The notes under the pieces: model-generated | Told to the model about the DNA's origin: nothing | What the model saw: only the letters and a program-made list of their open reading frames with translations | Database searches by the model: none | Source of the DNA: a virus | Taxonomy: Duplodnaviria > Caudoviricetes | Virus record (IMG/VR): IMGVR_UViG_3300037070_004226 | Coordinates: 1 to 60,440 of that record | Length of the DNA: 60,440 bases | Strand: one strand, 5' to 3' | Position numbers and translations under genes: made by a program | Shown: positions 12,401 through 46,836 of the stretch, piece after piece | Layout of the letters: each line of letters starts with the position of its first letter | How positions within the stretch are numbered: position 1 is the first letter of the stretch

Positions 12401-13868
12401 TGGGGTCCTTCAGTTCTCCGGGCTTCCGGGTAAGGGCGTCGTTGAGCCATTCTTCGGCCTGCTGCTTTGGCTTGGGAACGAGTCCCCTCCTCTTCGGCTG
12501 TGCGGGAGCCGCTTCCTTCCGGACGGGTCGCTTCTGGGGAACTGGGGGCGATTCCGGAACAGCCACCTCGGCACTTGGGTAGGACAATGTCCTATCGGGA
12601 ATCGCTTCCGGCTCCTTGCCCACAACGATTTCCGTTGGCCCTTGGGCTAAGACATCCGGTGGGTTGGCTGCATCCTGCGCCATAATCACCCCCTTCAGCA
12701 CGGAATCGTCTACCGGGGGGGCTGCTTCCGGCTCTACTTGTACTTCCGGCGGAACGACTTCGCCCGCTGTGGCTTGTACTTCAGCTTCTTCTTCGACCGG
12801 GGGTGTTTCTGTGGGTACTTCACTTTCAATCTCCTGTTCTGCCTGAGTAATAAGTCCGTCGAGCGCCTTGCCTCTCGATTCTCGGTTCTTCAACTGCTCG
12901 TCGGTGAAGCCCAGTTCCTTGCCTTCATCGACGGTGACGTACCGCTTCTGATCGTTGCGAATCTCCTTCAGGCGGGCGAGTTCCTGGGCTCGGGCTGCTC
13001 CCGTCACACCGCCGGAGATGATGTTCGGTGTTTCCACTGCCCCCAGCGTCACAGCGGTTTGAACGCTGGTCTCCTTCATGGTCTCCCAAATCTGCTTCGG
13101 GGTCAGAGGCTTTCCAGACGCAACCGACCTGGCGACGGCATGGCCGATTTCTGTGATGTTCTCCTCGGGGAGTTCCGCGAGCGCATCCTTCAGGGCCTGC
13201 TTCGCTGCGGGAAGGACTGCCTTGGAAGCAACTCGGCGGCCGACGGCTGATTCAAAACCGCCAAAGCCGACCTTTTGGAAAGCTGCCGCGACAATTCCTT
13301 CGATTACTCCTTGGGTATTGGCGTAGGTCCGGACTTCCGCCTCGGACATCCCCATGTCGCGGGCTTCGGTGATCGCCTGGTCTCGCTCCTGAAGGGCGGC
13401 GCTTCCGATTGCACCATAAGGACCAAGGAACCGCCCGGCCACAATGGACGTTGGGATGGTCTTTCCGGCTCCGCGGAGCGTGCGCTTCAGGATGGGAGGA
13501 ACGATTCCTTCCTCGTCGTGTTTCCGTGCCACCTGCTCATAGGCGTCGCCAAAACGATTCAGCTTGTCGGCCGTTTCATCCATTCCAACTTGGCGAGCCG
13601 CTGGAGCGACTACGCTTGTTCCCAGGCCAACCAGCGTTGCCCCCACGTCCCTGACGACAGAAGCTGGTACAAGGGGTCCGGCTATCGCCGCCGCCAGCTT
13701 CATGCCGGCACCCTTCCCCTTATCGACCTCGGCCTCAAGCCTGTTCTTCCGGGCCTCCTGACTGAGCATCCGGGCCTCGTCAAGCGGAACCTCCGGGGCG
13801 GAATCCCACCAGTTGCCGGCTGCTGGCTTCGGCTCGATTACCGGAGCGTTGTCCCACCAGTTACTCAT
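6414..13868 (-). CDS. Large polyvalent / ejected virion protein (~2480 aa) with a zincin-like HExxH domain and an LPD38-like C-terminus
   Basis: IAHEVAHHID; EATVNFKRxG..PFFNAAIQ..RIPKP pattern typical of LPD38. Probable start MSNWWD overlaps the upstream stop. Last gene of the late operon. Confidence 0.75.
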   Translation of the reverse strand: MSNWWDNAPVIEPKPAAGNWWDSAPEVPLDEARMLSQEARKNRLEAEVDKGKGAGMKLAAAIAGPLVPASVVRDVGATLVGLGTSVVAPAARQVGMDETADKLNRFGDAYEQVARKHDEEGIVPPILKRTLRGAGKTIPTSIVAGRFLGPYGAIGSAALQERDQAITEARDMGMSEAEVRTYANTQGVIEGIVAAAFQKVGFGGFESAVGRRVASKAVLPAAKQALKDALAELPEENITEIGHAVARSVASGKPLTPKQIWETMKETSVQTAVTLGAVETPNIISGGVTGAARAQELARLKEIRNDQKRYVTVDEGKELGFTDEQLKNRESRGKALDGLITQAEQEIESEVPTETPPVEEEAEVQATAGEVVPPEVQVEPEAAPPVDDSVLKGVIMAQDAANPPDVLAQGPTEIVVGKEPEAIPDRTLSYPSAEVAVPESPPVPQKRPVRKEAAPAQPKRRGLVPKPKQQAEEWLNDALTRKPGELKDPKAVAEWITKGFGDENYSKAVPEGKTLEQVVSDWMGPKPPETPPAAPQPDSSPEPTPVVPVTPVAPQEAVGPVKSKGRKDQYFKAYAAEIGKYRLGPVETETGTKFGVFAAGDERGGPVATFDGRDSAIQFMETQKQADEPVPPVQPKEPEAKAEAIQDEPYKPPHSSEEVRKAAQSAEAARKRFEKRSGPMVPPPIRIEISQKIATQEERVKEMKEANRKYNEEYRLRAEAKAVPEPLPPVEEKKAQEASGSITLKDDEYDLSKLSDAALRHLSRKNEGTQSYSDGGDNLKVAVTKELGNRKLADYTKGPEGVGEGEYKAWSKAREDRETAEQAIPTEEVALSKLEKSLFQTAARNLKIPFGGRGKHGYSAAKQYAGAIKNAEDIVKASPEMAAQAKKIEQAKQAALDRKEAAKKAEDEYYRVAGAGFPPVPAGVRYSLEREGRAYTTITVHEFDPARGKYRIESHGNESWVAPQPLLDNYVSKEEQDAVLQAERSFKESKDAKQRKSNAAAEKKRDEEEKVRLKEARSNARKRPDEKHTEVAKTKVKADKVLDSFDLGKHKSAELFGLKTHGLAMVKEMAKQVPEFAYEPIFTVNSKKQLVFRDGVTYTLNPESFNLHPSELTEGQTVGINLEDIGLQQISASEAVGRTLKNVGFSNVKVTENGVSATWGGSAHYLKKEAGKRVSLVGKGDKWRVEQSTLLPGAARMAEEQLAKIHFLEGGKPFQAKTPTQQAADKATQEEGEGVASLQAGITRQTRSSKPKTEGEAPIAAADIQKTAERLFNVPIRQEGFSDRAAGIYKWLSGKSRPPSPAVIRTGEDYFASLGVIAHEVAHHIDETTKAVRGMPKEVKTEIKRLDYEPQKGRVFEGWAEFLRRYMTEPPIDVNGKQVPNPAIDAPQTYAWFEGTWLPAHPEVAKSIAEFRGYAQQFSNQSAFARLASLISDKQPKDLSFKEEWLAKSRRFVNRLKTDFVDKFHTLEWIQEAAKKKGHKGIGIYDLTMAHFMSASSHATIAFEEGVKSLQTGKPIGTTSLWGLRDHLESDGEYEDAVLYAAARHTLFMEEKKPGYNTAFDVEDAENWISEVEASGKSDRFEAFAQGLAQFNNDLLKMLVEAGALPQDQADNMLRYYGGKNYFPLHRVREGDKGRFAGSGVGFVNLGKAVKGRSRKGSGRQIIDPIDATVAQAMRFYGRAIQARQQHVLAETLDPKLGGVGGMGGLMDRVDPKRKVTQGNIEEILDTLVDEGVVEADDSRAMKIAAQLLNSPETVSEKSLKWFAERHGIEEEDGEVDVDALMEAAQEEPNALAVISLWRPDYTPNASKRTVLIYDKQGNPLMYELDQDLYATTTGMDEVQFGPFMSVFREAARWFKTGAVGASTGFGTANLLRDYWEFQGKARHAKGLSTLGKPPEMLGRYIAEKARKLTGHKANDPLIRLYEESGGKVYSVVGHDAESRTRYRRRRIGKSVLSKLGITLSRPGDSAESVLQGMMDLIAVSDAPPRLADAEAAIREEGFEIRDGNWYNVEIGQEVDRLPEHVRIKAAVAMAEATVNFKRIGAKGQYVEAFLPFFNAAIQASHRQWGQIKGLKSLGKKDVEGTRAARYVVYLSALASTSILYWLLRHDDDDWREQEAHLRDGYWTWGRNGKTYLRIPKPRDSAVISNLTENMLDAWYHDDARDTSDVVLRDFGGRIPTGGGLGRGLVETFVADYDYFRGRDLTPDYLKDLPKEQQTTPYTSRASNSIGQVSGPYLGISPIQTDHLLSSASGGFYHRMTDLYDSARDGRLGPEHIPFLRGLVLDRHQARSVSDFYTELENLKIQGHREKAAGKVSDETTGKQAVLDGYAEMMTEIRNLEREGGTGRRDYQYQPYVVGLARSALGYDELKGNPNPLVAKDAPEEVQKIVSDYLQRTVYAATEPLKDESKYKDAESYERERRSLVRAQAQFQKLKADGAIEDAQSLLQEYYLKPDSTGKRGSIREKDTGELKDSYRKKLRALAGLGLE

Positions 13869-15207
13869 TTGGCACCGTCCGAATCGTTCCGTCTGGATGG
13901 ATGAAAGCCGTGCCGGGTTTCTTGCGAAGGGCTTCAAAGTCTGCCGGTGTCTTGGGTGTCGGCAGTCCGATCTGGTCTTTGTTGGCGAGGATCTTCTCGC
14001 GGGTCTCCGGTGAATAGGCCGAACCTGCCGTCGCCTGCATCGCAGTGGCATACGCGACGGCCGCTTTCATGGGGTCAGAAGCTCCCCAGTCGGAAGCCTT
14101 CTGAACCACTTCCGGCGTCACTCCCTTGGCAATATCAGGGGAAAGATTCGGGTACTTCTTCAGGTGCTCCTGAACGACGGTCGGGGACCAGATGTTGTCG
14201 GCCGGGGCTTGGAGACCCTGATTCTGGCCCAGTGGCTGTCCAGGAGATAACGTGTTGAGATCCTTCTCGGTCTGCTGAGAAGTTGCGGCCGGGGCGGCGG
14301 GAGTGAAGAAGGAATCCGCTTCACTCTGCATTTCGTCCGCCTTTTTCAGTGCTTCACCAAACGACTTGTACTTGGGTTTGTTGAGGTCGTCTGTCTCTGC
14401 AAAGAGCTTCTCGGCCTTCGCTTTGATGTCTTGCTGACGCTTCTGCTCTGCCGCTTGGATTTTCTCCTGCTGCTTGATCTGGTCAGCTTGGATTTTCTCC
14501 TGCTGCTTCTGCTGTTCCTTCTGCTGCTCTGCTTGAGCCTTCGCTTGGGCTTCCGCCTGGGGGTTCTCGATTGGCTTTCCTGTCCTGCGGTCGTAAGGAA
14601 TGCGGCCTTCTTCGGGAAGTCCGGCGTCGTTGAAGGCTTTGCCGGACTGGTCGCGGTAGATGGTGTTTTTATTCTCCTCGTCGGCTGGTGAAAACGAGTC
14701 CTGAAGATCCTGGACGCCAGATTGATAGGCGTCACGCTCCTCTTGCCACGCTTTCTGCACTTCGGGCTTCGTCAAATCCCAAGTCGGCCCCATCAACTCT
14801 GCCAGAGCGTTCTTGTGCTTCGTCAACGTCTTTCGAGCTTCGGCGTCAGCGTGCTCTGGAATAGATGGCAGCTTCATGAATTCAGCCTGAGCAAACCGAC
14901 GCTCGGTAAGCATGTCGCCTTGCACTCGCTTCTGGTCCGCGCCGAAAGCCTGCCATGCGCGGCCAAGCAATTGAGCCTTTTGCTGCTGCTCGTTCTGTCC
15001 GGCCTGGAACTCGAAGTTCGCCTCCTGCATCTTGACCCTGTTCTGCTGGTCAATCGCCGACTGCTGGGCCTGAAACGCCTGCTGCGACTGCTGCTGGTAA
15101 ATGTCGAGAAGGTCGTCCTGCTGTTTCTTCTTCCGGTTGCCAACGCCCGCCGCGAATCCAGATTGCAAGATGGGACCGGGTGCTCCGTACTTCAGGACGA
15201 TGGCCAT
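13861..15207 (-). CDS. Putative internal virion / DNA ejection protein
   Basis: Q/E/K-rich helical protein directly upstream of the giant ejection-like gene. Confidence 0.6.
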   Translation of the reverse strand: MAIVLKYGAPGPILQSGFAAGVGNRKKKQQDDLLDIYQQQSQQAFQAQQSAIDQQNRVKMQEANFEFQAGQNEQQQKAQLLGRAWQAFGADQKRVQGDMLTERRFAQAEFMKLPSIPEHADAEARKTLTKHKNALAELMGPTWDLTKPEVQKAWQEERDAYQSGVQDLQDSFSPADEENKNTIYRDQSGKAFNDAGLPEEGRIPYDRRTGKPIENPQAEAQAKAQAEQQKEQQKQQEKIQADQIKQQEKIQAAEQKRQQDIKAKAEKLFAETDDLNKPKYKSFGEALKKADEMQSEADSFFTPAAPAATSQQTEKDLNTLSPGQPLGQNQGLQAPADNIWSPTVVQEHLKKYPNLSPDIAKGVTPEVVQKASDWGASDPMKAAVAYATAMQATAGSAYSPETREKILANKDQIGLPTPKTPADFEALRKKPGTAFIHPDGTIRTVPNE

Positions 15208-20413: not shown

Positions 20414-22765
20414 CTACGTTGCGGACGGAGACGAGGACGGAGTGTTTGAAACGGACGAGGAGCGGCTGCTCGATGGCGTATTCGACACGGACGAGGACGG
20501 AGTGTTTGACACCGACGAGGACGGCGAGGGGCTGCTTGAGGGTGTGTTCGACGTGGACCCAGAAGCGGTGCTCGACGGCGAAGCCGAGGTACTCGTGCTT
20601 GGCGTGTTCGACACCGACGCCGAGGGGGAATGCGATTGACTGCTCGAAGGGCTGCTTGACGCTGACGACGACGGCGAAGGACTGCTGGAAGGAGACACAG
20701 AAGGAGAAGTCGAGGGACTGGCCGAAGCCGACGCGGATGGCGAGGACGAAACGCTTCTGGACGGGCTGGCAGACCGCGAGGACGACGGCGACGGGCTGCT
20801 CGACGTGGACGCCGAAGGTGACGCCGAGGGGGTGTTCGACACGCTGGCGGAAGGCGAACTCGACACAGAAGCCGAAGCAGTGCTCGATGGCGACGAAGAA
20901 ACGGACGCGGAGGGCGATGTGGATGTCGAAGCGGAGCGGCTGGAGGAAGGCGTATTCGAGACTGATGCGGACGGCGACGTGGACGGCGAACTTGATGTCG
21001 AGGCCGAGGGCGAAGTCGAGGGGGAAGCCGAAGCGGATGCGGACGGCGTGCTGGAGACCGACGCGGATCGGGACGACGACGGAGAATGAGAGACCGAGGC
21101 AGAGGGAGACGTGGAGGGAGACCCCGAAGGGCTGCTCGAACAGGAAACCACGCCAGGATCAACGATGTTGGCCGTGCTTCCCCGCCACTGACCCGAGGTT
21201 TCTGTATTTACAGTAAGTCCCTCGAACGCCCATCTCTCACACGACTGAAGCCACAAGACCGCCCAGACCGACCGGACGCGGGGGTAGCACATAATCGCCC
21301 GTCCGCTGATCCAGTTCCCGGAGCCTTTGACGTAGGTTGAATAACTCGTTCCGGCCTGGTACGCCTCGATCGCTAGCTTCACGTTGTCCGCCGCTTCTTC
21401 CGCAGTGTCCCCAGTGATGATCCGCCAGTTCACTCTCCCGCCGCCGGCCGCGAGCTGCGCGTGCATGTTCAGCATCCGCCCGAAGTACCCAGGGCGGCCG
21501 AGCCGGAAGGGGCCGATGGCGACGTGCGACGAAATCTCGTTCCCATCGTCGTCAGCCCCGCCGACCTTGCGGATGTACCCGTCACTGCCGGCCAATAAGA
21601 GCATTCCACGGTAATTACAGACCGCCAGCGGGGAGAGGCTGTCCCGATAGAACCTCATCGGCCAGAACGCCTTGGACACCGTTTCGTACAGCCAGTGGGT
21701 GTCAGAACCCGCAGCGGTTCGGAGGTAGATATGGAACGCCCTGCGCTCCTGGTCCCACCCGAGGGAGACCGTTGTGTCCGTGATGTGGATGTCCCTGAGC
21801 TCATCCGGCACGACGTCCGGAGTGAGGGCCGTCAGGTTGGAACCATCGGCGTTCACGGAATAGAGCCCGTCTTCCGAGAGGAACACGATCGACGTGTCCG
21901 TCTTCACCCAGGCTTTCGCGCCAACGATGCCGACCTCTTCGGAGACCCTTTGCAGAGATCCGCCCGCGGTGGGGTCGCCATTCACCACCCAGATTCCCCT
22001 GGACGTGAAGCAGAGCAGGTATTTATCCAGGCAGGGGACGATGGCCAGAGGCCGGGCACCGACATCCGCAGCGAGTGACAACTGGAACGCCAGCGCCCGG
22101 CCCGAGTCATTGAAGTGCGCCCCGTAATCGAAGTCGCCGTACACCCCCTGCCGAGACATGTAGATCGCGTTGTCCTGCCCGGCCATGCACAGCCGGTCGC
22201 GGTAGACCGCCCCGAACGTGCAATTCGTCGGAATCGTGCTGCCGGCGACGGCGACGAGGTTGTCGACCTGCCGCGTCTTGGGGTCCATCTGCACGACGCC
22301 GCTGGTGGTGACGGCGAACACCTTCTGCTTCCCAGCCACCAGGAAACCGCTGGCGGGAGCCGTTCCCTCGCTGACGATGATGGGGTTCTCGTTCTCATCG
22401 GTGATGATGTCGCCCGCTTCGTTCGTCAGGTAAGCCACCGTCGTCGTCAGAACGCCGTTGTCAATCGTGGCAATCGAGGAATCGACCAGCACGAACAGGA
22501 CTTCGCTCGCCCCGCCGGCCGCCGAGGAGACGTTCACCGCGATCATGTCGTCGATCGTGGTTCCGAGGGAAGCCGAGTGGTATTTCGTCAGTCCGTTCCG
22601 ACTTCCCCCACGGAGTCGGCGGTCCAATGGGTCTTCAATGCGGACGTTTACCGACCAGGGACTCGGGAAGGCCACGCGGGAATCCGGGCTGGAACGCACC
22701 GCTTCCCGGCGGACAACGCCCCGCATCGGCCATCGAAGATCAAGAGTCTTTTTCGGCATCGCCAT
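20414..22765 (-). CDS. Tail nozzle / DNA-stabilisation-like protein (P22 gp10 / T7 gp12-like) with a ~240-aa Ser-rich C-terminal tail
   Basis: Beta-propeller-like motifs (YRDRL..IYMSRQG..DFDY, VGIVG..IVFLSEDGLY); position after the adaptor; S/P/A/T tract at 20417..21146. Confidence 0.7.
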   Translation of the reverse strand: MAMPKKTLDLRWPMRGVVRREAVRSSPDSRVAFPSPWSVNVRIEDPLDRRLRGGSRNGLTKYHSASLGTTIDDMIAVNVSSAAGGASEVLFVLVDSSIATIDNGVLTTTVAYLTNEAGDIITDENENPIIVSEGTAPASGFLVAGKQKVFAVTTSGVVQMDPKTRQVDNLVAVAGSTIPTNCTFGAVYRDRLCMAGQDNAIYMSRQGVYGDFDYGAHFNDSGRALAFQLSLAADVGARPLAIVPCLDKYLLCFTSRGIWVVNGDPTAGGSLQRVSEEVGIVGAKAWVKTDTSIVFLSEDGLYSVNADGSNLTALTPDVVPDELRDIHITDTTVSLGWDQERRAFHIYLRTAAGSDTHWLYETVSKAFWPMRFYRDSLSPLAVCNYRGMLLLAGSDGYIRKVGGADDDGNEISSHVAIGPFRLGRPGYFGRMLNMHAQLAAGGGRVNWRIITGDTAEEAADNVKLAIEAYQAGTSYSTYVKGSGNWISGRAIMCYPRVRSVWAVLWLQSCERWAFEGLTVNTETSGQWRGSTANIVDPGVVSCSSSPSGSPSTSPSASVSHSPSSSRSASVSSTPSASASASPSTSPSASTSSSPSTSPSASVSNTPSSSRSASTSTSPSASVSSSPSSTASASVSSSPSASVSNTPSASPSASTSSSPSPSSSRSASPSRSVSSSPSASASASPSTSPSVSPSSSPSPSSSASSSPSSSQSHSPSASVSNTPSTSTSASPSSTASGSTSNTPSSSPSPSSSVSNTPSSSVSNTPSSSRSSSVSNTPSSSPSAT

Positions 22766-23702
22766 CGTGCCACGAAGGAATCGGCTTGAAATGCTCAACA
22801 AGCCATGATAACGGACGGACGGCCAGTGGCCACGCATCTTTTAGCCACAAATCCCTGGAATGGTCCCGAGCCTTGTCGATGTCCCTTTGCGAGATTTCGT
22901 AGGGCCAGGACGATTCTCCGTTCTGTCCGAAGTTCCCCGTGCGGAAGAGATGCGAGATCCAGGTGTCGAGATTCGTCACCATCCGGCCCCCGGAGAGCCA
23001 GGCTTTGCAGGCGAGCTCGGTCCCGTACTGGCCCCAGCTTCCGTGAGATTCATCCATCCCCCCGAGCTTCTTGAACCGCTTCCGGTCCATCAGGAAGGCG
23101 CAGCCGATACAGCTCATCGTCTCGACGATGCCCGAGGGGGCCTGCCGCTTGTACTCCGGGGAGTGAACGTAGTGACGCCAGTATTGGAAGTGAAGCGTTC
23201 GGTCGAACATCCACGAGGTCGTAGGGGCGTACTCGACTCTGGGCTGCCAGACCATGACCTTACTGAAGTCCGTTCCCTTGCACTCCTTGCACTCGACCGG
23301 CTTCGTCCCCTGGTACTGTCTCTCCCCGCAGCCGTTGCAGTGCCAGTCGAAGACATGGAGCCGGTGCATCGACGGAATCATCGTCATGTCCGGCTCCATC
23401 TTGGCCAGGAGCTTCCGGTCGAAGCCCTCGTCGGTCGAGCAATGGGCGTCGAGTTTCATCACGTACTTCGCCCGGCTGACGTGCGCCCCATAGTTGGTCG
23501 CCGCCCGCTGGCCTACCGCGGTGCCAAAGTGAAGCACCTGAAGCCGCGGGTGATGAACGAGGGGAGGATTCGGCCAGTACGAATCGCAGACCGCAATGAC
23601 CTCGGTCGATTCGTCAGAGTGGGCGAGAACGTCGTCCACGGTATGCCGCATGAATTCTTCGTTGCGGCCGGGAATAATCACGCTGAGGAGTTTAGCCGCC
23701 AC
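22740..23702 (-). CDS. GT-A glycosyltransferase resembling the polypeptide GalNAc-transferase catalytic domain
   Basis: SVIIPGRNE, KLDAHC (DxH), LGGMDESHGSWG..ELACKAWLSGG..HLFR; contains a CxxC..CxxC insert. Confidence 0.85.
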   Translation of the reverse strand: MAAKLLSVIIPGRNEEFMRHTVDDVLAHSDESTEVIAVCDSYWPNPPLVHHPRLQVLHFGTAVGQRAATNYGAHVSRAKYVMKLDAHCSTDEGFDRKLLAKMEPDMTMIPSMHRLHVFDWHCNGCGERQYQGTKPVECKECKGTDFSKVMVWQPRVEYAPTTSWMFDRTLHFQYWRHYVHSPEYKRQAPSGIVETMSCIGCAFLMDRKRFKKLGGMDESHGSWGQYGTELACKAWLSGGRMVTNLDTWISHLFRTGNFGQNGESSWPYEISQRDIDKARDHSRDLWLKDAWPLAVRPLSWLVEHFKPIPSWHDGDAEKDS

Positions 23703-24441
23703 GATGTCTCGCGCTCTTTCCGGGGTTTTTGTGGAACCAGTTACGCTCCGTCTTCCGGCTCAGGGTATGAAACAGCCCCTGCGGATCGGCGTCCACGTCC
23801 CCGACGTATTTGCCGTTTGGGAAGTGGTATATCTTCGGGCGGTGGGTGCAGACTTGGCTTCCCTCTCCACCACGCTTCAGCTCGTAAGTCCGCCAGGCAC
23901 TGCGGAAGGCCCTGTCCTCACCCTGGGGGTAGGGCTTTTCCACGAGGTCTTCCCGGTATCCGCCCAGTTCCCAGAACACGTCCCTCCGCATGGCGAAGTT
24001 GTTCGGAAGCGGGCCATGAGCCAAGCTCACGTTCTTCGGGAGCCCGTAGGTTTCGAGAACGTCTCGGTCCTGGGTCAGCCGGCCATTTTCATCCAGCACC
24101 CCAAACTCACGGACGAATTGGACTTTGACGCCGGTGAATTCCCTGATGAATTTGATCGCGTACCTGGGGACGATGTGGTCGAGGTCGTACATCATGAGGT
24201 ATTCGCCCTTGGCGATTCTGGCCCCGGCGTTCCGGGCGAGGGCCCACGTCCAGGGGCGCTTGTCGTTCGTCCTGATAATCGTCGCAATGTGGTCAAAGTT
24301 GTTCTCGATGGGCGGGTCGCTCCCGTCATCCACCAGAATCAACTCGGTGTCTCCGGGCAGGCCGATGTTGTAGAAGTGCAGCAGTTGCCGGCGAACCACT
24401 TCATGCGAATTCAAACATGGTATTACGATGCTCAACTTCAC
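23692..24441 (-). CDS. GT2-family glycosyltransferase
   Basis: KLSIVIP, ILVDDGS, ARNAGA, DLDH, LGGYRE..GED. GTG start overlaps the methyltransferase stop. Confidence 0.9.
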   Translation of the reverse strand: MKLSIVIPCLNSHEVVRRQLLHFYNIGLPGDTELILVDDGSDPPIENNFDHIATIIRTNDKRPWTWALARNAGARIAKGEYLMMYDLDHIVPRYAIKFIREFTGVKVQFVREFGVLDENGRLTQDRDVLETYGLPKNVSLAHGPLPNNFAMRRDVFWELGGYREDLVEKPYPQGEDRAFRSAWRTYELKRGGEGSQVCTHRPKIYHFPNGKYVGDVDADPQGLFHTLSRKTERNWFHKNPGKSARHRGG

Positions 24442-25082
24442 GATCCCAGCCCAGCCCTTTCCGCCCCCCGCATCCAGAACGCGGTCGGCTCCATGTCCCG
24501 CGTCACGTACCACGGGTCAATCCAGTGGGAATGGGTGTAGCCATCGACCGCCTTAATCACTCCGGACATGCCGAACGAGCAGTAGTCGTGAACCAGGACC
24601 AGACCGCCTTCACGGACCTTCGGTGCCCAGCGAATGATTCCTTGAACACAGGCATCGAACGTGTGATCGTCGTCGATGTTCACCGCGTCGAGAGAACCGT
24701 CCTCGAAGTCTTCCACGGCGTCGAGACTGGCCTTCCTGAGAATCGTGAACCCGTACTGTTCCGCGTGCAGCATGGCCGCGACGTAGATTTTGTCCTGACT
24801 CTCCTGCGAAACCCGGTGGTAAGCCCGATAGGGGTCGATGCAGGTGAGGTCCAGTCCGGGAATGTTTTCCTTCCAGAGAATCGCTGATGCCCCGTAGCGC
24901 GTCCCCACTTCAACCATCTTCTTCACGCCCAGGTCACGCATGGTGAGGGCCAGGGACAGTCGGCCTTTGCCATCCCTGCCGGTCCTGTGGAGGGACGTGG
25001 CCAGAATCGGCAGGTTGTCCAGTCCGCCCTGGAACCGGAAATGCTTATTAAGCGCTTTTCGCAAGTCGAGCATCGTCTGCAA
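24438..25082 (-). CDS. Class I SAM-dependent methyltransferase (Methyltransf_24-like, possible sugar O-methyltransferase)
   Basis: VEVGTRYGASA, CIDPY, IDDDH, GGLVLVHDY. Confidence 0.85.
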   Translation of the reverse strand: MQTMLDLRKALNKHFRFQGGLDNLPILATSLHRTGRDGKGRLSLALTMRDLGVKKMVEVGTRYGASAILWKENIPGLDLTCIDPYRAYHRVSQESQDKIYVAAMLHAEQYGFTILRKASLDAVEDFEDGSLDAVNIDDDHTFDACVQGIIRWAPKVREGGLVLVHDYCSFGMSGVIKAVDGYTHSHWIDPWYVTRDMEPTAFWMRGAERAGLGS

Positions 25083-25785
25083 TTCCTTCGTTGTAGATAC
25101 GGGTGATTTCCTTAGCCCGACCCCAAATCGGGATGTCGAACGCCTTCAGTTCCCCCGGCTTCCGCGCCAACCCCTTAGTTCCAATGTAGGTGGGGCTGAG
25201 ACCGTCGGGATGGCATAGGTTAACCATGGGCTCGATACAATACCACTCCACCAGCTTGTTTCGGCGGACGCCCAGAATCTTCTCGACCTCGCGCCGTCCG
25301 ATTTCCCCGGTGTAATCCCTGCCCTGGGGCCACTTCTCTTCTCTCTCTTCGAGGGCATCTACGACCAGCTTCCTTGGGCCGATCATCGTGAAATTCCCGT
25401 GCTTCCTGATGGCTGAGTAGTACGGGTTTTCGTCCCATGACATAACCGACCAGCGGGACATATCGTAGGCCACCTCGTCGTCCCGCGGGCGGAAGTCGCT
25501 GAAGTGCCGCTTCGTATAAAGCGTGTCGTCCTCTGCCACGGCCACGTACTTCGTTTCCGCCAGGGCCGCACCCCTGAGAAGCTGGCGGTACACGTTCCAA
25601 GCACGGAATGGCCCGTCTTGAATCAGATAGCCGGTTGCCGGTCGGGTCGGCTCCTCGACCGGCTTCGCGGAAATGACGATCATCGGCCTGCCTTCCGTGG
25701 CACGAAGAAGATGCTCCCAGTGGAATTTCACCCACCGGGAAGGCATCTTGTTGCACGTCAGATACACAACCGTAAGGTCGCTCAT
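25048..25785 (-). CDS. GT-A-fold glycosyltransferase-like protein
   Basis: N-terminal LTVVYLT strand; AETKYVAVAEDDTLY with a DxD-like EDD motif. Confidence 0.65.
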   Translation of the reverse strand: MSDLTVVYLTCNKMPSRWVKFHWEHLLRATEGRPMIVISAKPVEEPTRPATGYLIQDGPFRAWNVYRQLLRGAALAETKYVAVAEDDTLYTKRHFSDFRPRDDEVAYDMSRWSVMSWDENPYYSAIRKHGNFTMIGPRKLVVDALEEREEKWPQGRDYTGEIGRREVEKILGVRRNKLVEWYCIEPMVNLCHPDGLSPTYIGTKGLARKPGELKAFDIPIWGRAKEITRIYNEGIADDARLAKSA

Positions 25786-26321
25786 TACGTGGGCGACGGG
25801 CTTGCGGACGGAGAACCGGACGCGGACGCCGAGGGCGACGTCGAGGCCGAAGGCGTATTCGACACGGACGCTGATGGTGACGTGGAAGCCGATGGCGTAT
25901 TCGAAGCCGACGCCGAGGGCGACGTGGACGGGCTGCTCGACGCCGAGGCCGAAGCGATGACCGTTCCCAGGTTCCCTTCGAGGGCTTCCCAGCGGAACAC
26001 GCCGGCGCTGACCGTCACCGAAATGAGGCTCAGGAAGTCGCTGGCGTCCGCAAAGGTCGCTTGCGTTTCCCCGGCCACGTTGAAGCCGCCGGTCGCAGTG
26101 ACAACGATGTCACCACCGCCATCCGTCTTGATTCGGAGGACCAGCCGAATTCCCGGCTTGGTCGGCCTGGGGAGCGTGCGGGTTTCCCCGGAAGCGCCGC
26201 TGACCATCTCACAGATTTGGAGATCCATCTTCGGCCGGATGATTCCGGCGTTGCCTGGGTCTTTGAGGATCTTCGGGCCTTTGTACAGGTCGTGGTGAAG
26301 TCTGGAAGCTGGCGTGCCCAT
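25785..26321 (-). CDS. Putative virion protein with a 56-aa Ser-rich C-terminal tail
   Basis: Paralog of 26371..26733 plus a PSASxS tract. Confidence 0.8.
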   Translation of the reverse strand: MGTPASRLHHDLYKGPKILKDPGNAGIIRPKMDLQICEMVSGASGETRTLPRPTKPGIRLVLRIKTDGGGDIVVTATGGFNVAGETQATFADASDFLSLISVTVSAGVFRWEALEGNLGTVIASASASSSPSTSPSASASNTPSASTSPSASVSNTPSASTSPSASASGSPSASPSPT

Positions 26322-26370: not shown

Positions 26371-26733
26371 CTAAGCCGCGTAAGCGATGCGTCTGGTCAT
26401 AATCTGCCAGCGGAAGGTGCCGAGAGTGGCAGTTTCCACCGAGATCAGGGAAAGCAGGTCGCTCGCGTCTCCGAACGTCGCCTTGCTTTCCCCAGCGTTA
26501 TTGAGTCCGTTGGTGACTGTCACCACGATGTCCCCGCCATCCGTCATCAGGCGAAGCACGAAGCGGATGCCGGATTTCCTGGGGGCGGCCAAGGTGCGGG
26601 TCTGGGCCGCGGTGGAGACCATCTCGCAGATTTGCAGGTCTTCCCGGACGTGAATCGTCTTGCCGTCTCCGGGGTCGGTAAGCAGCTTGTCGGCTTCGTA
26701 GAGTGCTGCGTGGACGCGATGTTGACTGGGCAT
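26371..26733 (-). CDS. Putative virion protein, tail-less paralog of 25785..26321
   Basis: Shared DLQICEMVS, TRTL, TDGG.DIVVT, DASDxLSLISV and FRW; AAGGA RBS before ATG 26733. Confidence 0.8.
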   Translation of the reverse strand: MPSQHRVHAALYEADKLLTDPGDGKTIHVREDLQICEMVSTAAQTRTLAAPRKSGIRFVLRLMTDGGDIVVTVTNGLNNAGESKATFGDASDLLSLISVETATLGTFRWQIMTRRIAYAA

Positions 26734-26776
26734 GTGAAAATCCTTGTGAAAGGAAGAGGAAGGGAGATCAGTCGGA

Positions 26777-27193
26777 TTACAGTTCGTCTGTCTCGTAAAT
26801 CGCTTCGATGGAACCCGTGAGGGTGTTTCCGCCCTGGGCCACGACAACCTTGATTCGCATATCCACCAGGGGGATGCGTTCGGAGGGAACGGTTCCAAGG
26901 GCTCCGGTCGCCGAGTTGGAGTTCGTCGGGGTGGCACGGGGGTACAGGAATGAATTCCCTGTCCCCAGATTGAGCTTGGTCAGAATCGGGGTTCCGGCTG
27001 GAGCAGCGTATCCAGCAGGAGGGTTCGCAGGGACTGCCTCCTCCGCGGTGATCGTCAGGTCTGCCCCTGTGACAATCGTTCCGGGGCGGTAGATGATCAT
27101 GTGGAGGTAGCCACGAATCTTCGACCCCAGGTACACGGTCGCGTCTCCGCCAGAACTGGTCACGATGGCGGTCGTTACTCTTTTGAGCAGCAT
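26777..27193 (-). CDS. Hypothetical virion protein
   Basis: 138-aa beta-rich ORF in the structural operon. Confidence 0.65.
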   Translation of the reverse strand: MLLKRVTTAIVTSSGGDATVYLGSKIRGYLHMIIYRPGTIVTGADLTITAEEAVPANPPAGYAAPAGTPILTKLNLGTGNSFLYPRATPTNSNSATGALGTVPSERIPLVDMRIKVVVAQGGNTLTGSIEAIYETDEL

Positions 27194-28445: not shown

Positions 28446-29531
28446 TTAGATGACGATGATGTCGCTGTCGGCATCGGTTTCATCCCCCGGAGAGGGCGAA
28501 GACGAAGGGCTTGCCGATACAGATGATGATACGGAGGAACTGGGACTGGGGGAGGAACTGGGACTGGAAGAGACTGAGGAAGAGGGCGACGGAGAAGCGC
28601 TTGGGCTGCCGCTTACGCTCGACGATGGACTGGTGGATGGCGAACTGCTTTTACTACTGCTGGGAGTGTTCGACGCCGAAGCGCTGGGAGTGTTGCTGAC
28701 GCTCGAAGATGGGGATGCGGAAGGACTGCTGCTGACCGAACTGCTTGGGCTTGGAGAGCTCGACGGTGATGACGAAGCCGAAGCGCTGGGGGTGCTCGAC
28801 GCCGATGAGGAGGGTGTACTGCTGGGGGAACTCGACACCGAGGACGAAGCGGTCGAGGACGCCGAGCCTGAAGGCGATGAGGAGGCTGCACCGGAATAGG
28901 TGAGGACGATTCTGCCAGAACCGCCCGTCGTTCCGTTCGCCGTGGCACCACCACCGCCACCACCGCCACCAGGAGCCGAACCTGCGGCCCCGGCCTGCCC
29001 TGTGCTGCCACCGTTGCCGCCGTTTCCAGCCCCTGTTACGCCAGAGCCACCGGCCCCTCCGCTGACGCCAGAACCGGCGTCGCCGTTGTCACCGTTGGCC
29101 GCGGTTCCTCCTGATGATCCACCGCCACCAGCCCCACCTGAACCTGAAGCGTTTCCGCCGTTTCCGCCCGAGAACTTGGTATCGCCAGTCCCCGAAGCCG
29201 ATGCCCCGCCAGTTCCACCAGTACCAACCGACCCGGTAAGACCACCCTTGGCCAGACAGACAACCGTTACATCGTCATCGTCCGCGAAGTAGGTATCCCC
29301 GCCAGAGTTCCCAGGGCCGGAACCTCCAGCGCCTACAGACCAGCCATAGAGCAGGCCCGCAGTGACAGCCCATGCGTTCGTCTTGGAATACCCACCACCA
29401 CCACCACCACCTTCTCCGTTGGTATTGACGCCGCTTGAACCGCCGCCCCCCCAGCATTCAACGGCAACGGACGTGACGCCAACCGGGCATTCCCAGTCGC
29501 CAGTCCCTGAAGTGAAGGTTTCTTGGGCCAT
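28446..29531 (-). CDS. Glycine-rich domain protein with a ~130-aa Ser-rich tract
   Basis: TFTSGTGDW.CP.GVTSV.VECWGGGG...GGSGRIVLTY glycine-rich phage domain, followed by a PSSS/PSAS tract. Confidence 0.8.
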   Translation of the reverse strand: MAQETFTSGTGDWECPVGVTSVAVECWGGGGSSGVNTNGEGGGGGGGYSKTNAWAVTAGLLYGWSVGAGGSGPGNSGGDTYFADDDDVTVVCLAKGGLTGSVGTGGTGGASASGTGDTKFSGGNGGNASGSGGAGGGGSSGGTAANGDNGDAGSGVSGGAGGSGVTGAGNGGNGGSTGQAGAAGSAPGGGGGGGGATANGTTGGSGRIVLTYSGAASSSPSGSASSTASSSVSSSPSSTPSSSASSTPSASASSSPSSSPSPSSSVSSSPSASPSSSVSNTPSASASNTPSSSKSSSPSTSPSSSVSGSPSASPSPSSSVSSSPSSSPSPSSSVSSSVSASPSSSPSPGDETDADSDIIVI

Positions 29532-30335
29532 TTAATCCACGGAAAGGTCTGTCGATGTGGCGAAGCTGTGTCCTGGTACGGTCGAAAGCAGGATTTCCGT
29601 GCGTGATACTGCGGTTTTCAACCTGGATCTCTGAGTCGATGGGGCCTGAATGAGTATTGTATCCGAAGTGATCTCGATTTCATCTCCGCCGCTCGGGCTG
29701 GAAGAGAGTGAAGAGGAAACCGAAGCGCTGGGTGAAGGACTGGCCGAAGGGGAAGTTGATACGCTGGCGCTGGGTGAGGTGCTAGTCGAGGCCGAAGGAC
29801 TGGCCGAAGGCGAAGCGGAAACGGAAGCGGACGGTGTGGACGATGGGGAACTGCTTACCGAGGCCGATGGCGACGAGGAAGGCGATGGCGAAGCCGAGGG
29901 GGACGATGACGGCGATGGCGAGGCGGAAGGCGTTGACGATGCAGACGCCGAGGGTGTTGCCGACGGCGAGCTGCTTACGCTACTTGATGGCGACGGGCTC
30001 GCACTGGGAGACGTGGAGGGCGAACTTGACGGTGATGGGGACGCCGAGGGCGTGGACGAGATAGACGCCGAGGGCGAAGCGGAGGGGGTAGAAGAGGCCG
30101 AAGCCGACGGTGATACGGATGGCGTTGACGATGCCGATGTGGACGGCGAGGACGATGGCGACGGGCTGGAGCTTGGACTTGCGGACGGGCTGGAACTGGG
30201 CGAAGCAGACGGGCTGGTCGATGGAGAGGACGACGCCGCTGAAGACGCATCATGGATTGCTCCATCCGGCGTCCAGAATACGCGAGCGCCTTCCAGGACT
30301 ACTGAGCCGTCTGAGGACCAGGCTACTTGTGGCAA
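29532..30335 (-). CDS. Mucin-like Ser/Pro/Ala-rich protein
   Basis: ~185 of 267 aa are SPSAS-type repeats; TTG start with GGGGGTG upstream. Confidence 0.75.
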   Translation of the reverse strand: MPQVAWSSDGSVVLEGARVFWTPDGAIHDASSAASSSPSTSPSASPSSSPSASPSSSPSPSSSPSTSASSTPSVSPSASASSTPSASPSASISSTPSASPSPSSSPSTSPSASPSPSSSVSSSPSATPSASASSTPSASPSPSSSPSASPSPSSSPSASVSSSPSSTPSASVSASPSASPSASTSTSPSASVSTSPSASPSPSASVSSSLSSSPSGGDEIEITSDTILIQAPSTQRSRLKTAVSRTEILLSTVPGHSFATSTDLSVD

Positions 30336-30353: not shown

Positions 30354-31739
30354 TTAGGTGCCAATCCAGATTGACGGATCGAGGTACATGTTTCCCGCGG
30401 TGATGCTTGCCACTCCCACCATAAGTCGCGCTCGCGCCGTGCACTTCTCGGCAACGGTGCGCGTCACCCGGCACTCCATCTCGTTGTCATTGGCAACGAT
30501 CTCTGTCCATGTCTTTGCACTATTCGTGAGGTCAACCGGCGTGCCGTCGAACGGCTGTGCGTTTCTTGTGCTTGTGATCGTGCCAATCGGGAAGCTGGCA
30601 TTTTCGAGGCATTCAAACTCGGCCCATACTTCCCTGTTTGTGAAATCGGTAGCACTCGCACGAAGCAACTGCAAATGAATGTCCTGAGATCCAGTTGTGT
30701 CCAGCCACCTATGAATCCAGGGCGTGACAAAAGGCTCTGCCTCGGAGCAAGCAGCCGTGGTGACGATTTCCCAACTGATTCCCGCCCCGTCGAATTGAGC
30801 CCCGCTGTTGGCGAAGTTGCTGGTGTTCTGCGTGATCTGCCCAAGACGGTTGTAGTACGCGAAGGTGTTATGGGTATCGCCGGGGTCAACCAGAACCGCC
30901 GTGATGTTTGCCACATTGCCGAGGAAGCTGCCTGTATACAGTCCCGGTGTTGCACTTGTTTTGCAGTTGATGAGGCGAAGCGGCCCAGCCATATTCGTGA
31001 TGTCGAAATAGAAACCGCCAGACTTCTCGTACGCTGACAAGTCCGAGTCCGCAATGGTCACGTCGCTGGTTAAGTTCGTCTGGAAGTCGCAAAGCGATGC
31101 CGGTTTGCTGCCGCCGATATAGCTCATCGTGAGCCCGGTGATCCTGACGCGGCAATCGCGGAACAGCATCACGGCCCCGGTCGCTACGTTCTTAATGCCG
31201 ACGGCACAGTTCACGACGTTGGAGGTCGTTGTGAGCTTCGTGGTGTCGGCGGACGGGCCGAATTGCAGGCGGGCGGCGGCGTTCGTGCTGTTGACATTCA
31301 GCGTGCAGCCTTGCAGGTCAACCGAAATAATCGTGTCTGTTTCGCCGGCCACGGCAATCGAGATATGTGCACCCGCAGAGTTTCCTGTTCCGCCGTTTAT
31401 GGTCATACCGAAGATACGCAACCGCTGCCCGCCAATCGAGCCGATGCCGAACACCGCATTAGCCGCCCCCACGTTCTCGGCTGCACCCGCTGCCCAGGCG
31501 GTCGGCGGTTCCCCGCTCGCTCGGCTGGCACTGATGATTGCCAGGACTTGATTCGCGGTGACGGCGTTCCAAGTGATCGCAGCACCAGGCGTGAAGCTAT
31601 GCGCCGAGTCAACGTAGATGATGTCTCCACTCGCGGTAGCGACAGCGATAGCACCGGCGACGGTTGCCTTGGCATTTGCCCAGGTCAAACCGTCACTGGC
31701 GTCGGAACCATCTACGGAGCTAACGTAATAGACTGTCAT
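30354..31739 (-). CDS. Pectin-lyase-like beta-helix protein (putative tail spike or appendage)
   Basis: YYVSSVDGSDASDGLTWANAKATV..GDIIYV N-terminus typical of beta-helix proteins; ATGA coupling. Confidence 0.65.
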   Translation of the reverse strand: MTVYYVSSVDGSDASDGLTWANAKATVAGAIAVATASGDIIYVDSAHSFTPGAAITWNAVTANQVLAIISASRASGEPPTAWAAGAAENVGAANAVFGIGSIGGQRLRIFGMTINGGTGNSAGAHISIAVAGETDTIISVDLQGCTLNVNSTNAAARLQFGPSADTTKLTTTSNVVNCAVGIKNVATGAVMLFRDCRVRITGLTMSYIGGSKPASLCDFQTNLTSDVTIADSDLSAYEKSGGFYFDITNMAGPLRLINCKTSATPGLYTGSFLGNVANITAVLVDPGDTHNTFAYYNRLGQITQNTSNFANSGAQFDGAGISWEIVTTAACSEAEPFVTPWIHRWLDTTGSQDIHLQLLRASATDFTNREVWAEFECLENASFPIGTITSTRNAQPFDGTPVDLTNSAKTWTEIVANDNEMECRVTRTVAEKCTARARLMVGVASITAGNMYLDPSIWIGT

Positions 31740-44785: not shown

Positions 44786-45615
44786 CTACTTTCCGGCACA
44801 GACGTAAGGGCCGCACGAATACTCCCACTCTTCGTCCGCGAACAGGCGAAGGTTTTTGTCGTCCTTGATGGCCTCGCGTAACGGCTTGAGACGAGAGCAG
44901 AAGTAAACCGGGTCTTTCCCGAGGGAAAGACGACGGTCATTCAACAGCTCTTCCAGTTGGCACGATTTCTCAAATAGCTTTGGCCGCGTCCGTCTCTGTT
45001 CAATCCAGAAGCGAATAGTATGCAGCGGGCAGAACCAGCAAGACGATTTTGGAGCGACCGGCAGGCCAGCGGCCTCGATGATGTTCATGCAAGCGCCACG
45101 ACTCAGCCCCAAGCGGATAAGCGGATAAGCGGGTAGTCGAGAATCTGGTGCGGGATGCCGCTATCCGACCTCGCCCGGCTTGCTTCATCCGTGCTGATGC
45201 CGATGCCGACAATCATCGGATGCTCTTCGGTCGCTCCGTTCGCCTTCGACCACTTCGCCAGCACTTTGATTTTGAAGTCGGCGGTGCAGCTCCTTGTACC
45301 AGGTGCTCCAGTCTCGCTCATGCGAACAGGAATTGGCAGCGACCTTGAACCGTGTTTGGTCAATCTGCCCAGGAGCGTCTCTTGCGTGCCATCTCGCTTC
45401 AGACGCGGAATGACGACCAGCGATAACCCATGCTTCTCGGCGTAGGGCTTGGCGACCTGTTCCAAGTAATCCAGAGTCGCCGGGTTCTCTGAGTCCTCCC
45501 CCACGTCCGCCATGACGAAATGCTTGTATTCCGGCAGCCTGCCAGTCGCGGCCAGAACAAGGCAGGCGGTCGATTGAACCCCACCGCCAAAGCTGAAAGC
45601 GTGAGTAATTGTCAT
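44786..45615 (-). pseudogene. PAPS-reductase / adenine nucleotide alpha-hydrolase family gene split by an 8-bp duplication
   Basis: SFGGGVQS, CTADFKI and GISTDE in 45103..45615; KSSCWFCP in 44786..45112; frameshift at the AAGCGGAT tandem repeat 45111..45132. Confidence 0.8.
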
Positions 45616-46095: not shown

Positions 46096-46836
46096 TCAGA
46101 CTGCCTCTTTTTCCCTTCGTTCGTACTCACGATACCACTCCGCATCCCGCTTCGACATCGGCGTTCGATAAAACGGGTCGGAACTGTGCTTGCTGGCCAC
46201 CGGCTTCACGGCGTCCTCCGCAGACGCTCCTCGCTTCAGGCGACGATAAATTACCGCTGACGAAATTCCAAATTCTGAGACGCACTCGCCCACGCTCATC
46301 ACGATTCCGTCAATCTCAAGCCTGATGTTGTTGCTCCGGTTGTTGGCCTGGACCTCGACTGTCGCCCAACGACAATTTCCAGGCTCATAACTCCCGTCGT
46401 TGTCCTCCCGGTCAATCGAGTGGAGATCGGACGGCCTCCTGCCCATGTCCTCCAAAAATGCCAGGAACGATCTCCACCGCTCGCAAAAGGTAATTCCGCG
46501 GCCTCCGTACCGCTCGTTTTCAAGATCCAGGCATCTCGCCTTCATCGCCAGCCAGACGCGATATTCAGGCGTCCCGCTTTCTCCGTGAGTCACATGCCCG
46601 CCAAACTTGTGGCCTCGCTCGACCGCCATCTCCTTCGCCAAGCATCCACACGATTTCGTCCGACCATTCCTGAGAGCCGGAAGCCGGAAAACCTTAGAGA
46701 ACCCGCAGTCGCACTTGCACTCCACCATCCGAACTATCGTCCCGTTCGGAGTCTTCACCTGATCCAGTTCCCGCTGAACTACCAACCGCCCAAAGCGGTC
46801 GCCAGCAGATACAGGTTTTGCGGTCTTGAGCGGCAT
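46096..46836 (-). CDS. HNH homing-endonuclease-like protein
   Basis: CKCDCG, KSCGC, YGGRGI.FCERW, SIDREDNDGSYEPGNCRWAT. Confidence 0.85.
   Translation of the reverse strand: MPLKTAKPVSAGDRFGRLVVQRELDQVKTPNGTIVRMVECKCDCGFSKVFRLPALRNGRTKSCGCLAKEMAVERGHKFGGHVTHGESGTPEYRVWLAMKARCLDLENERYGGRGITFCERWRSFLAFLEDMGRRPSDLHSIDREDNDGSYEPGNCRWATVEVQANNRSNNIRLEIDGIVMSVGECVSEFGISSAVIYRRLKRGASAEDAVKPVASKHSSDPFYRTPMSKRDAEWYREYERREKEAV

Follow-up and report, generated by a model that had tools for sequence, protein, structure and literature searches.

Introduction

To our knowledge, the initiation of mucin-type O-glycosylation by the polypeptide N-acetylgalactosaminyltransferases (ppGalNAc-Ts) of glycosyltransferase (GT) family GT27 is treated as a eukaryotic trait; the mucins themselves carry dense tracts of serine (Ser) or threonine (Thr) repeats. 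Gram-positive bacteria glycosylate their serine-rich repeat proteins (SRRPs) in the cytoplasm through GtfA/GtfB, and SdgA/SdgB act on Ser-Asp repeats; the SRRP initiators are enzymes of the GT-B fold (GT4) that work on cellular adhesins with dedicated export. Among phages, a 2023 article by Freeman et al. in Cell Host Microbe is said to have described virion glycosylation in the mycobacteriophages Che8, Corndog and Myrna. A further account places the glycans of mycobacteriophage virions at the C-termini of capsid and tail-tube subunits (PMC12619734). Here we analyze the IMG/VR virus record IMGVR_UViG_3300037070_004226 (Duplodnaviria; Caudoviricetes), the whole 60,440 bp of which form the stretch of DNA under study (hereafter the window), and within it a gene at positions 22740..23702 of the minus strand whose 320-amino acid (aa) product is related to the ppGalNAc-Ts and is encoded last in a four-gene cassette flanked by genes for Ser-rich proteins. 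We propose that this GT27-like enzyme probably starts a cytoplasmic O-glycosylation of the neighboring Ser-rich tracts, the other products of the cassette extending and methylating the glycan.

Protein O-glycosylation by cytoplasmic GTs encoded by phages or bacteria is a known kind of process; what is new here is the GT27-type proposed initiator and the mucin-like Ser repeats with which it is associated. A full-text search of the literature, to whose coverage subscription journals and supplements did not belong, yielded no account of a GT27-like enzyme or of Ser-repeat glycoproteins in phages or Patescibacteria; within the same coverage, the mycobacteriophage systems, the enzymes of which are unrelated to those described below, were the only instances of phage virion glycosylation that could be traced.

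Results

Kinship of the phage enzyme with GT27

The open reading frame (ORF) of the GT27-like enzyme starts with a GTG codon. Its coordinates stand as given in an earlier note made from the letters of the DNA, and the translation holds both of the strings quoted there together with the CNGC...CKEC stretch. That note had recognized ppGalNAc-T signatures in the product, a reading borne out by sequence, profile and structural comparisons with the PDB, all of which rank GT27 first. In Pfam, the enzyme matched Glycos_transf_2 over residues 7-109 only (E = 1.9e-9; 38.1 bits for a cut-off of 23.3) and Glyco_transf_7C over residues 196-241 (6.4e-5, exactly at the cut-off). The best 16 distinct PDB sequences retrieved by phmmer were all ppGalNAc-Ts (3.7e-8 to 6.4e-3), the first match outside GT27 following at E 0.012. 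A profile built from 35 homologues found the same 16 ppGalNAc-Ts at 2.9e-21 to 6.4e-10 with both halves of the enzyme aligned; the matches of this profile to ordinary GT2 structures (3bcv, CgT, chondroitin synthase, TagF, ArnC, GtrB, SpsA) were restricted to the N-terminal nucleotide-binding half, that is, to the first ~80-100 positions.

Structural searches were carried out with an AlphaFold (AF2) model of the enzyme (pLDDT 92.6, pTM 0.91). Foldseek, a tool that the earlier note had named for the check, gave GT27 enzymes at all of ranks 1-50 among the matches listed (best 5.1e-17; TM 0.57-0.67 on the query). VIA, a search independent of Foldseek that was run over 48,161 representative chains, placed mouse GalNAc-T1 first (Z 26.8 over 275 residues, root mean square deviation 2.9, 23% identity) and Toxoplasma gondii GalNAc-T3 second (Z 25.0), the next family following at Z 18.2; matches at this score and lower comprised AvpGT, a Leptospira GT2, WrtF, K4CP, SpsA and TarP/TarS, among others. 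The gap in Z scores, together with a profile match that covers both halves, indicates that the acceptor-side half of the enzyme is specifically GT27-like. Sequence, profile and fold thus all lend strong support to kinship with GT27. Other resources were less informative: the only PHROGs match was a weak one to a PHROG of unknown function (8.9e-4), NCBIfam matches fell far under the cut-offs, and the source labels of close homologues read "hypothetical protein" or "glycosyltransferase involved in cell wall biosynthesis".

The residues expected of a GT27 active site are in place. The Gal/GalNAc-T motif of GT27 is of the WGGENxE type, and the query stretch SWGQYGTELACKAWLSGG aligns to it with the W, G, E, L, W and GG positions conserved and its central residues (GQYGT) differing from the GT27 counterpart. 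The DxH motif (D85-A86-H87, codons at 23442..23450, minus strand) aligns to the "DSHC"/"DAHC" of ppGalNAc-Ts, and H251 in ISHLFR (codon at 22950..22952, minus strand) to the His of the GT27 "GHVFR" motif, so that the metal triad announced in the earlier note is present. It is invariant across 270 homologues: D85 and H87 were each found in 120/120 close homologues and 154/154 distant domain matches (274/274 in total), and H251 in 120/120 and 146/146 (266/266). E229, W235, G238 and G239 are likewise shared by 120/120 close homologues and by at least 142 of ~150 distant ones; with R254, K83, G64 and R66, they are invariant or nearly so in the aligned homologues. It is hardly credible in this light that the protein is an inactive or vestigial GT homologue with a structural or chaperone role. 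Nothing specific speaks for such a role beyond the generic possibility that attaches to any divergent enzyme, and it is countered by the (near-)invariance of the metal ligands and other motif residues, by the confidence of the model and by the 66-88% identity seen among thousands of relatives, which points to strong purifying selection on the catalytic core.

The absence of a transmembrane anchor and of a ricin-type lectin domain, also predicted in the earlier note, holds as well. The first beta-strand of the model begins at residue 6 and the homologues start at the same place, leaving no transmembrane segment, anchor or stem; Pfam returned no ricin-type (CBM13) match, and the chain stops at residue 320, once the catalytic domain is complete. 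Since this phage/bacterial protein has no signal sequence, it is predicted to be cytoplasmic. Given the missing anchor and lectin domain and an identity of only 16-23%, we refer to the enzyme as GT27-like and not as a member of GT27.

The Zn-finger-like insert that the note had described is present, as a predicted Cys4 zinc-ribbon-like element (C122, C125, C138 and C141; 23280..23339, minus strand) with beta-strands on both sides in the model; the suggestion that it takes the place of the lectin domain did not hold. Every close homologue examined (120/120) has all four Cys. Of 135 distant domain matches, 76 have four Cys, 28 three, two have two, three have one and 26 none, and the element is also missing from a shorter second paralogue present in three Patescibacteria genomes. 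Because it is lacking in those 26 matches and in this paralogue, the Cys4 element can be considered optional. Judged from sequence, it is inserted within the catalytic domain and is no stand-in for a C-terminal lectin domain.

A conserved cassette with gene fusions

The GT27-like enzyme is encoded last in a four-gene cassette located inside the late gene block and co-directional with it. In order, the cassette comprises a third, previously unannotated GT-A-fold enzyme (25048..25785, minus strand, 245 aa, with an E85-D86-D87 motif), a Methyltransf_24 S-adenosylmethionine-dependent methyltransferase proposed to O-methylate sugars (24438..25082, minus strand, 214 aa, Pfam 1.1e-13), a generic GT2 proposed to extend the glycan (23692..24513, minus strand, 273 aa, Glycos_transf_2 2.6e-13) and the GT27-like enzyme itself. 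In the PDB, the GT2 matches chondroitin synthase, TarP and RmlT over their N-terminal halves (best 1.2e-4), and the methyltransferase has no match by sequence. No match to the third enzyme was found in Pfam, PHROG or NCBIfam; its AF2 model, based on 34 homologues (pLDDT 94.0), has a GT-A fold for which Foldseek returned generic GT-A enzymes only (WrtF, EXTL2, SpsA; best 3.3e-6, TM ~0.4-0.46), and E85, D87, Y90 and H94 are invariant in the same homologues. On the strength of this model we take it to be the third GT of the cassette. As the GT2 matches N-terminal halves only and the third GT is generic GT-A, the GT27-type acceptor half is confined to the GT27-like enzyme.

The cassette proved to be conserved among viruses. 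Of 80 viral loci selected for their similarity to the GT27-like enzyme and searched for the other genes by tblastn at 1e-5, 65 contained the methyltransferase, 59 the third GT and 36 the GT2. The genes are also fused in various combinations: the GT27-like enzyme with GT2 and Methyltransf_24 (P0121, P0124), GT2 with the GT27-like enzyme (P0123) and the GT27-like enzyme with the methyltransferase (P0175). One 934-aa ORF (L065) holds a domain of the GT27-like type, a second GT2 and a Methyltransf_24 domain in a single protein, and in L040, L044, L045, L047, L052, L062 and L067 the third GT is joined to the C-terminus of the GT27-like enzyme. The idea that the GT27-like enzyme alone may suffice was dropped, the candidate loci for such an arrangement, in which it had seemed to be the sole cassette gene beside a giant S/T-rich ORF (L065, L109, L122, L131, L144), all encoding longer fusions of 532-1,181 aa. 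We note that homologues in P0134, P0140 and L109 (9992-13537) contain inteins (Hint, Intein_splicing or LAGLIDADG domains) or are followed by GIY-YIG and NUMOD3 homing endonuclease domains.

The make-up of the cassette raises the question of which of its enzymes adds the first sugar. The cassette may well O-glycosylate the Ser tracts with the GT27-like enzyme acting as an extender, initiation falling to the third GT-A enzyme, the GT2 or a host enzyme; we consider this division of roles unlikely, yet deserving of attention. Three GT-A enzymes belong to the cassette, and the third GT comes close to the GT27-like enzyme in conservation (59/80 viral and 52/80 cellular loci) and is fused to it in seven loci. 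Clusters of the candidate phyla radiation (CPR) moreover hold the second, shorter paralogue, with which the work might be divided. According to PMC12363180, Che8 gp110 is one of two GTs essential for capsid glycosylation; this protein being GT25-like by Pfam, enzymes outside GT27 can be key to phage virion glycosylation. Set against these points is the acceptor half of GT27 type, found in the GT27-like enzyme only and confined, among solved structures, to peptide-initiating enzymes. This leads us to favor the GT27-like enzyme as the initiator, the role that the earlier note had assigned to it.

Ser-rich neighbors and their covariation with the cassette

The earlier note had remarked that the gene directly abuts the one with the longest Ser tract of the window, and it does. 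A scan of the window for at least 40% Ser per 30 residues identified four Ser-rich ORFs on the strand of the cassette, between 20.4 and 30.3 kb and flanking it, with tracts of 62-254 aa, C-terminal in three of the four. All four are proposed substrates. On the downstream side lies an 807-aa protein (20414..22837, minus strand) with a 254-aa C-terminal tract (~20417-21178), whose true start is probably a few codons inside the listed ORF. On the other side are a 178-aa protein encoded immediately upstream of the cassette (25785..26321, minus strand) with a 62-aa C-terminal tail (~25788-25973), a 361-aa protein (28446..29531, minus strand) combining a Gly_rich_2 domain (PF21722, 1.8e-9) with a 160-aa C-terminal tract (~28449-28928), and a 267-aa protein (29532..30335, minus strand) with a tract of 209 aa. 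The scan flagged six more ORFs of 85-180 aa with tracts of 35-48 aa, which were dismissed by inspection as overlapping-frame. The 807-aa protein weakly matches the tail appendage family PHROG 8094 (E 3.5e-4) and the other Ser-rich proteins have no PHROGs match; its tract gives weak, composition-type NCBIfam matches to ClfA and to a "serine-rich protein" model, far under the cut-offs. The nearest Atlas clusters of the 178-aa protein are viral hypothetical proteins; a single Atlas lead, scoring 0.95, to a "phage depolymerase C-terminal" cluster was not built on. The 178-aa protein has a tandem paralogue (26371..26937, minus strand; 60% identity over 109 aa, E 3e-41) that lacks the Ser tail and whose listed ORF is probably over-extended at the N-terminus. 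The two paralogues, of which only the 178-aa protein bears a Ser-rich tail, form a built-in pair for testing the tail and its modification.

Among the 80 viral loci, 66 include an ORF with a tract of at least 40 residues and at least 50% Ser plus Thr (S/T). As these loci span 34-67% GC, the tracts are not an effect of base composition. A natural experiment was available in relatives of the phage, retrieved with a neighboring 411-aa protein as bait (80 kept of 107 relatives). The interval between the homologues of the 411-aa and 807-aa proteins was fully covered in 68 loci, 20 with and 48 without the cassette. The homologue of the 178-aa protein carries an S/T tail in 17 of the 20 cassette loci versus none of the 15 cassette-less loci that have the homologue. 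The 807-aa homologues carry an S/T tract in 0/48 cassette-less loci and in a single cassette locus (L239, 347 aa); the tract being limited, the window aside, to L239, the use of the 807-aa protein as a substrate would be lineage-specific.

On a tree of the 411-aa protein with 62 rows, from which seven loci with fragments of less than 200 aa were left out, S/T tracts occur in the interval in 16 of 18 cassette-positive rows versus 2 of 44 cassette-negative ones. The state of the cassette changes at least six to seven times on this tree, and in six to seven independent pairs the tract changes on average in the same direction in 4.5, in the opposite direction in 0.3 and not at all in 1.2. The cassette and the S/T-rich tails were therefore gained and lost together among related phages, a tie between the enzyme and Ser-rich proteins stronger than the adjacency from which the earlier note had argued.

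These observations bear directly on the nature of the acceptor. The cassette could conceivably act on something other than protein, be it teichoic acid, lipopolysaccharide/O-antigen, capsule or phage DNA, with a role for instance in superinfection exclusion or restriction evasion, and the Ser tails would then be unglycosylated flexible linkers that happen to be encoded close by. Phage GTs are indeed familiar chiefly from DNA glucosylation and serotype conversion (PMC12619734). A bacterial gene annotated as a ppGalNAc-T is described in PMC11032452 as encoding an enzyme similar to TagN, the teichoic-acid GalNAc transferase of S. aureus PS187, the acceptor being poly-glycerol-phosphate; and the cell wall labels of some close homologues would fit an acceptor of this kind. 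A non-protein acceptor is nonetheless improbable, since the cassette is co-directional inside the late block and is gained and lost with S/T tails on its neighbors, since the Ser-rich ORFs with the longest tracts in a Woesebacteria chromosome immediately follow the homologue (see below), and since no DNA-hypermodification genes were seen beside the cassette. A role in DNA modification was rejected in view of the late-block position and the cellular contexts. We accordingly retain the view that the cassette modifies protein.

Family size and cellular relatives

The family of the GT27-like enzyme is large, comprising no fewer than 3,622 sequence clusters at E ≤1e-3 among 3,795 near-length candidates and 1,115 representatives at 50% identity, 214 of them under 1e-30. 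Viral relatives occur on at least 559 contigs among 598 pattern matches; none was detected at 1e-3 when 50,697 deposited phage genomes were searched with the enzyme by tblastn.

Cellular relatives, all from metagenome-assembled genomes (MAGs), are encoded in 158 of 175 pattern matches in one-genome-per-species contigs. The best 80 of the 158 share 39-56% identity with the enzyme and are mostly from Patescibacteria (Woese-, Levy-, Davies- and Saccharibacteria, WWE3 and others), with a minority from Thermoplasmatota, Pacearchaeota and others. Several "Gammaproteobacteria" labels on chromosomes of ~0.9 Mb were not trusted. Loci L090, L095, L096, L098-L101, L103, L106, L111 and L114, among others, bear "uncultured Gammaproteobacteria" titles that look unreliable given a Patescibacteria-like GC content (34-47%), small chromosomes (938 kb for OZ246401.1) and gene content.

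The cassette recurs in these 80 cellular loci, of which 61 have the methyltransferase, 52 the third GT and 10 the GT2. An S/T-rich ORF was found in 52/80, typically giant, just downstream and on the same strand; examples are a 2,373-aa protein with 49% Ser and SPSVSPS-type repeats (L103) and one of 2,324 aa (L151). Four of the giant Ser-repeat proteins (L103 11128-18246, L151 12087-19058, L107 14636-16225 and L130 13111-17751) have no obvious signal peptide and share a C-terminal domain of ~60 aa that ends in a motif of the type ...W-N-x-x-G-R-P-K...G-F-N...L-E...W...L-P-M-K-K-I.

The background of such ORFs was checked on one Woesebacteria chromosome, 800 of whose 916 kb were read. Eight S/T-rich ORFs were present. 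Immediately downstream of the homologue come three whose tracts (337, 159 and 360 aa) exceed those of the other five (42-141 aa). One of these three (L107 12430-14118) joins a Gly-rich domain to Ser repeats, an architecture matching that of the window ORF at 28446-29531. Nearby (L107 1882-6653) are genes for a Polysacc_synt_2 dehydratase, a UDP-GlcNAc 2-epimerase, a Polysacc_synt_C epimerase/reductase, a carbamoyltransferase and more Methyltransf_24 enzymes. This Woesebacteria cluster is a glycan-building island and not a prophage. Its genes resemble those of a pathway to UDP-2-acetamido-6-deoxyhexose and hint at a glycan derived from an N-acetylhexosamine (HexNAc), carbamoylated and methylated.

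The shorter paralogue mentioned above was seen as frames of 263-272 aa (G001:C1 231155-231895, G002:C1 294634-295302 and G003:C14 622086-622751), 7-15 kb from the full copy and matching the profile at positions 2-122 and from 166-180 to 250-275. By analogy with the GalNAc-T isoforms, the pair may represent a division of labor.

Other features of the phage genome

The record corresponds to an entire virus record with a completeness rating of 100%, and the window is the complete genome of an uncultured tailed phage. Phage hallmarks include a holin (PF05105, 1.7e-24), Rad52, a 5'-3' exonuclease and a helicase; further phage-type matches are a weak one to an SU10-type portal and a beta-helix protein. 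At the end of the late block, a 2,545-aa ORF (6414-14051, minus strand), in which an LPD38 "large polyvalent protein" domain (3.5e-19) lies close to the C-terminus, probably encodes a giant virion protein or an ejected polyvalent protein. A 704-aa protein (31736-33850, minus strand), with weak matches below the cut-offs to the CEMIP beta-helix and the G8 domain, may be a tailspike or depolymerase. A 3'-phosphoadenosine 5'-phosphosulfate (PAPS)-reductase-like protein (45103-45615, minus strand; phrog_424, 4e-19) and an HNH endonuclease (46096-46836, minus strand; phrog_374, 8.5e-60) are encoded upstream of the 692-aa and portal-like ORFs.

Discussion

A cassette flanked by Ser-rich tails with which it covaries suggests that the phage puts a sugar coat on proteins of its own. 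As we envision it, the GT27-like enzyme would be soluble in the host cytoplasm and dependent on Mn2+ through D85, H87 and H251, and would transfer the first sugar from a UDP-sugar to Ser residues of the PSAS-type tracts on the four neighboring late proteins. Extension of the glycan would then fall to the GT2 and the third GT-A enzyme, and its methylation, or capping, to the Methyltransf_24 enzyme, the product being dense, O-glycosylated, mucin-like extensions of bottle-brush type on late phage proteins. The parts of this proposal differ in strength. That the cassette as a whole has a protein acceptor is quite likely; that the GT27-like enzyme is the initiator is plausible, and on balance we lean towards it. 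The weak match of the 807-aa protein to a tail appendage and the late-block position hint at a location of the substrates in the virion. There they may be exposed on the surface and confer a benefit through shielding, adhesion or stability. More tentatively, and with some doubt on our part, the family may be a prokaryotic and viral sister of the eukaryotic mucin-type initiators, acting in the cytoplasm on the Ser-repeat proteins of phages, Patescibacteria and some archaea.

A number of observations weigh against the proposal. The identity of the enzyme to GT27 is low and its N-terminal half is generic GT2; by the description of the TagN-like enzyme, a GT27-like label does not fix the acceptor. 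Three GT-A enzymes share the cassette, and the universal presence of the GT27-like enzyme in the sampled loci follows from their having been selected by it. The apparent "enzyme-only" loci hold extra domains or other GT2s, such as an intein in L109 and a separate upstream GT2 in L122. No S/T-rich ORF was present in the fetched flanks, many of them incomplete, of 14/80 viral and 28/80 cellular loci, and 3 of the 20 cassette loci have a 178-aa homologue without a tail. The sign test on independent contrasts is underpowered (median p 0.125), so that the covariation relies on raw counts. Lastly, the indications of a virion location for the Ser-rich proteins are weak matches only, to PHROG 8094 and Gly_rich_2.

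If the proposal is true, the chemistry of mucin-type initiation is no eukaryotic invention, and many uncultured phages have a self-made glycan coat. Confirmation of the activity would provide a compact, soluble enzyme of the bacterial cytoplasm for making mucin-like glycoproteins and show that phages have a second and widespread means of decorating proteins of their own. It would also offer an explanation for the very long Ser-repeat proteins found in Patescibacteria and have implications for how GT27 arose in evolution.

The closest parallel among phages is Che8, where Pfam identifies gp108 as GT2 plus Methyltransf_24, gp109 as GT2-like and gp110 as GT25-like. Both phages thus have a cluster of several GTs with a Methyltransf_24 enzyme, and the Ser tracts of the window are, like the glycans reported for mycobacteriophage virions, mostly C-terminal. 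In contrast to Che8, the signature enzyme of the window is GT27-like and not GT25, and the proposed acceptors are Ser-rich tracts of 62-254 aa on late proteins with an inferred place in the virion. Homology to Che8 gp108-110 was rejected: hhalign gave probabilities of 0.2% (gp110) and 5.6% (gp109), and BLASTP of the window methyltransferase and GT2 against gp108 gave E values of 0.029 and 3.5, that is, no detectable similarity. The TagN-type enzyme, compared here by its published description, is likewise a prokaryotic soluble GT labelled GT27-like; unlike in that description, the context of the window enzyme consists of Ser-rich proteins and not of teichoic-acid genes. With the SRRP systems the window shares GTs predicted to be soluble and cytoplasmic, encoded beside genes with very long Ser-rich repeats. 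It departs from them in that its enzyme is GT-A and GT27-like and its proposed substrates are phage proteins.

Compared with eukaryotic GT27 structures (mouse GalNAc-T1, 8v9q; human GalNAc-T2, 6egs/4d0t; T. gondii GalNAc-T3, 8uhv), the enzyme differs in its predicted cytoplasmic rather than Golgi-lumenal location, in lacking the lectin domain, in its Cys4 insertion and in the distribution of its family over phages, Patescibacteria and some archaeal MAGs. What it has in common with them are the same two GT-A halves, the DxH motif with the distal His, the W-G-x4-E-L...W-x-x-G-G and H-x-F-R signatures and, as with GT27 enzymes on mucins, an association with dense Ser tracts.

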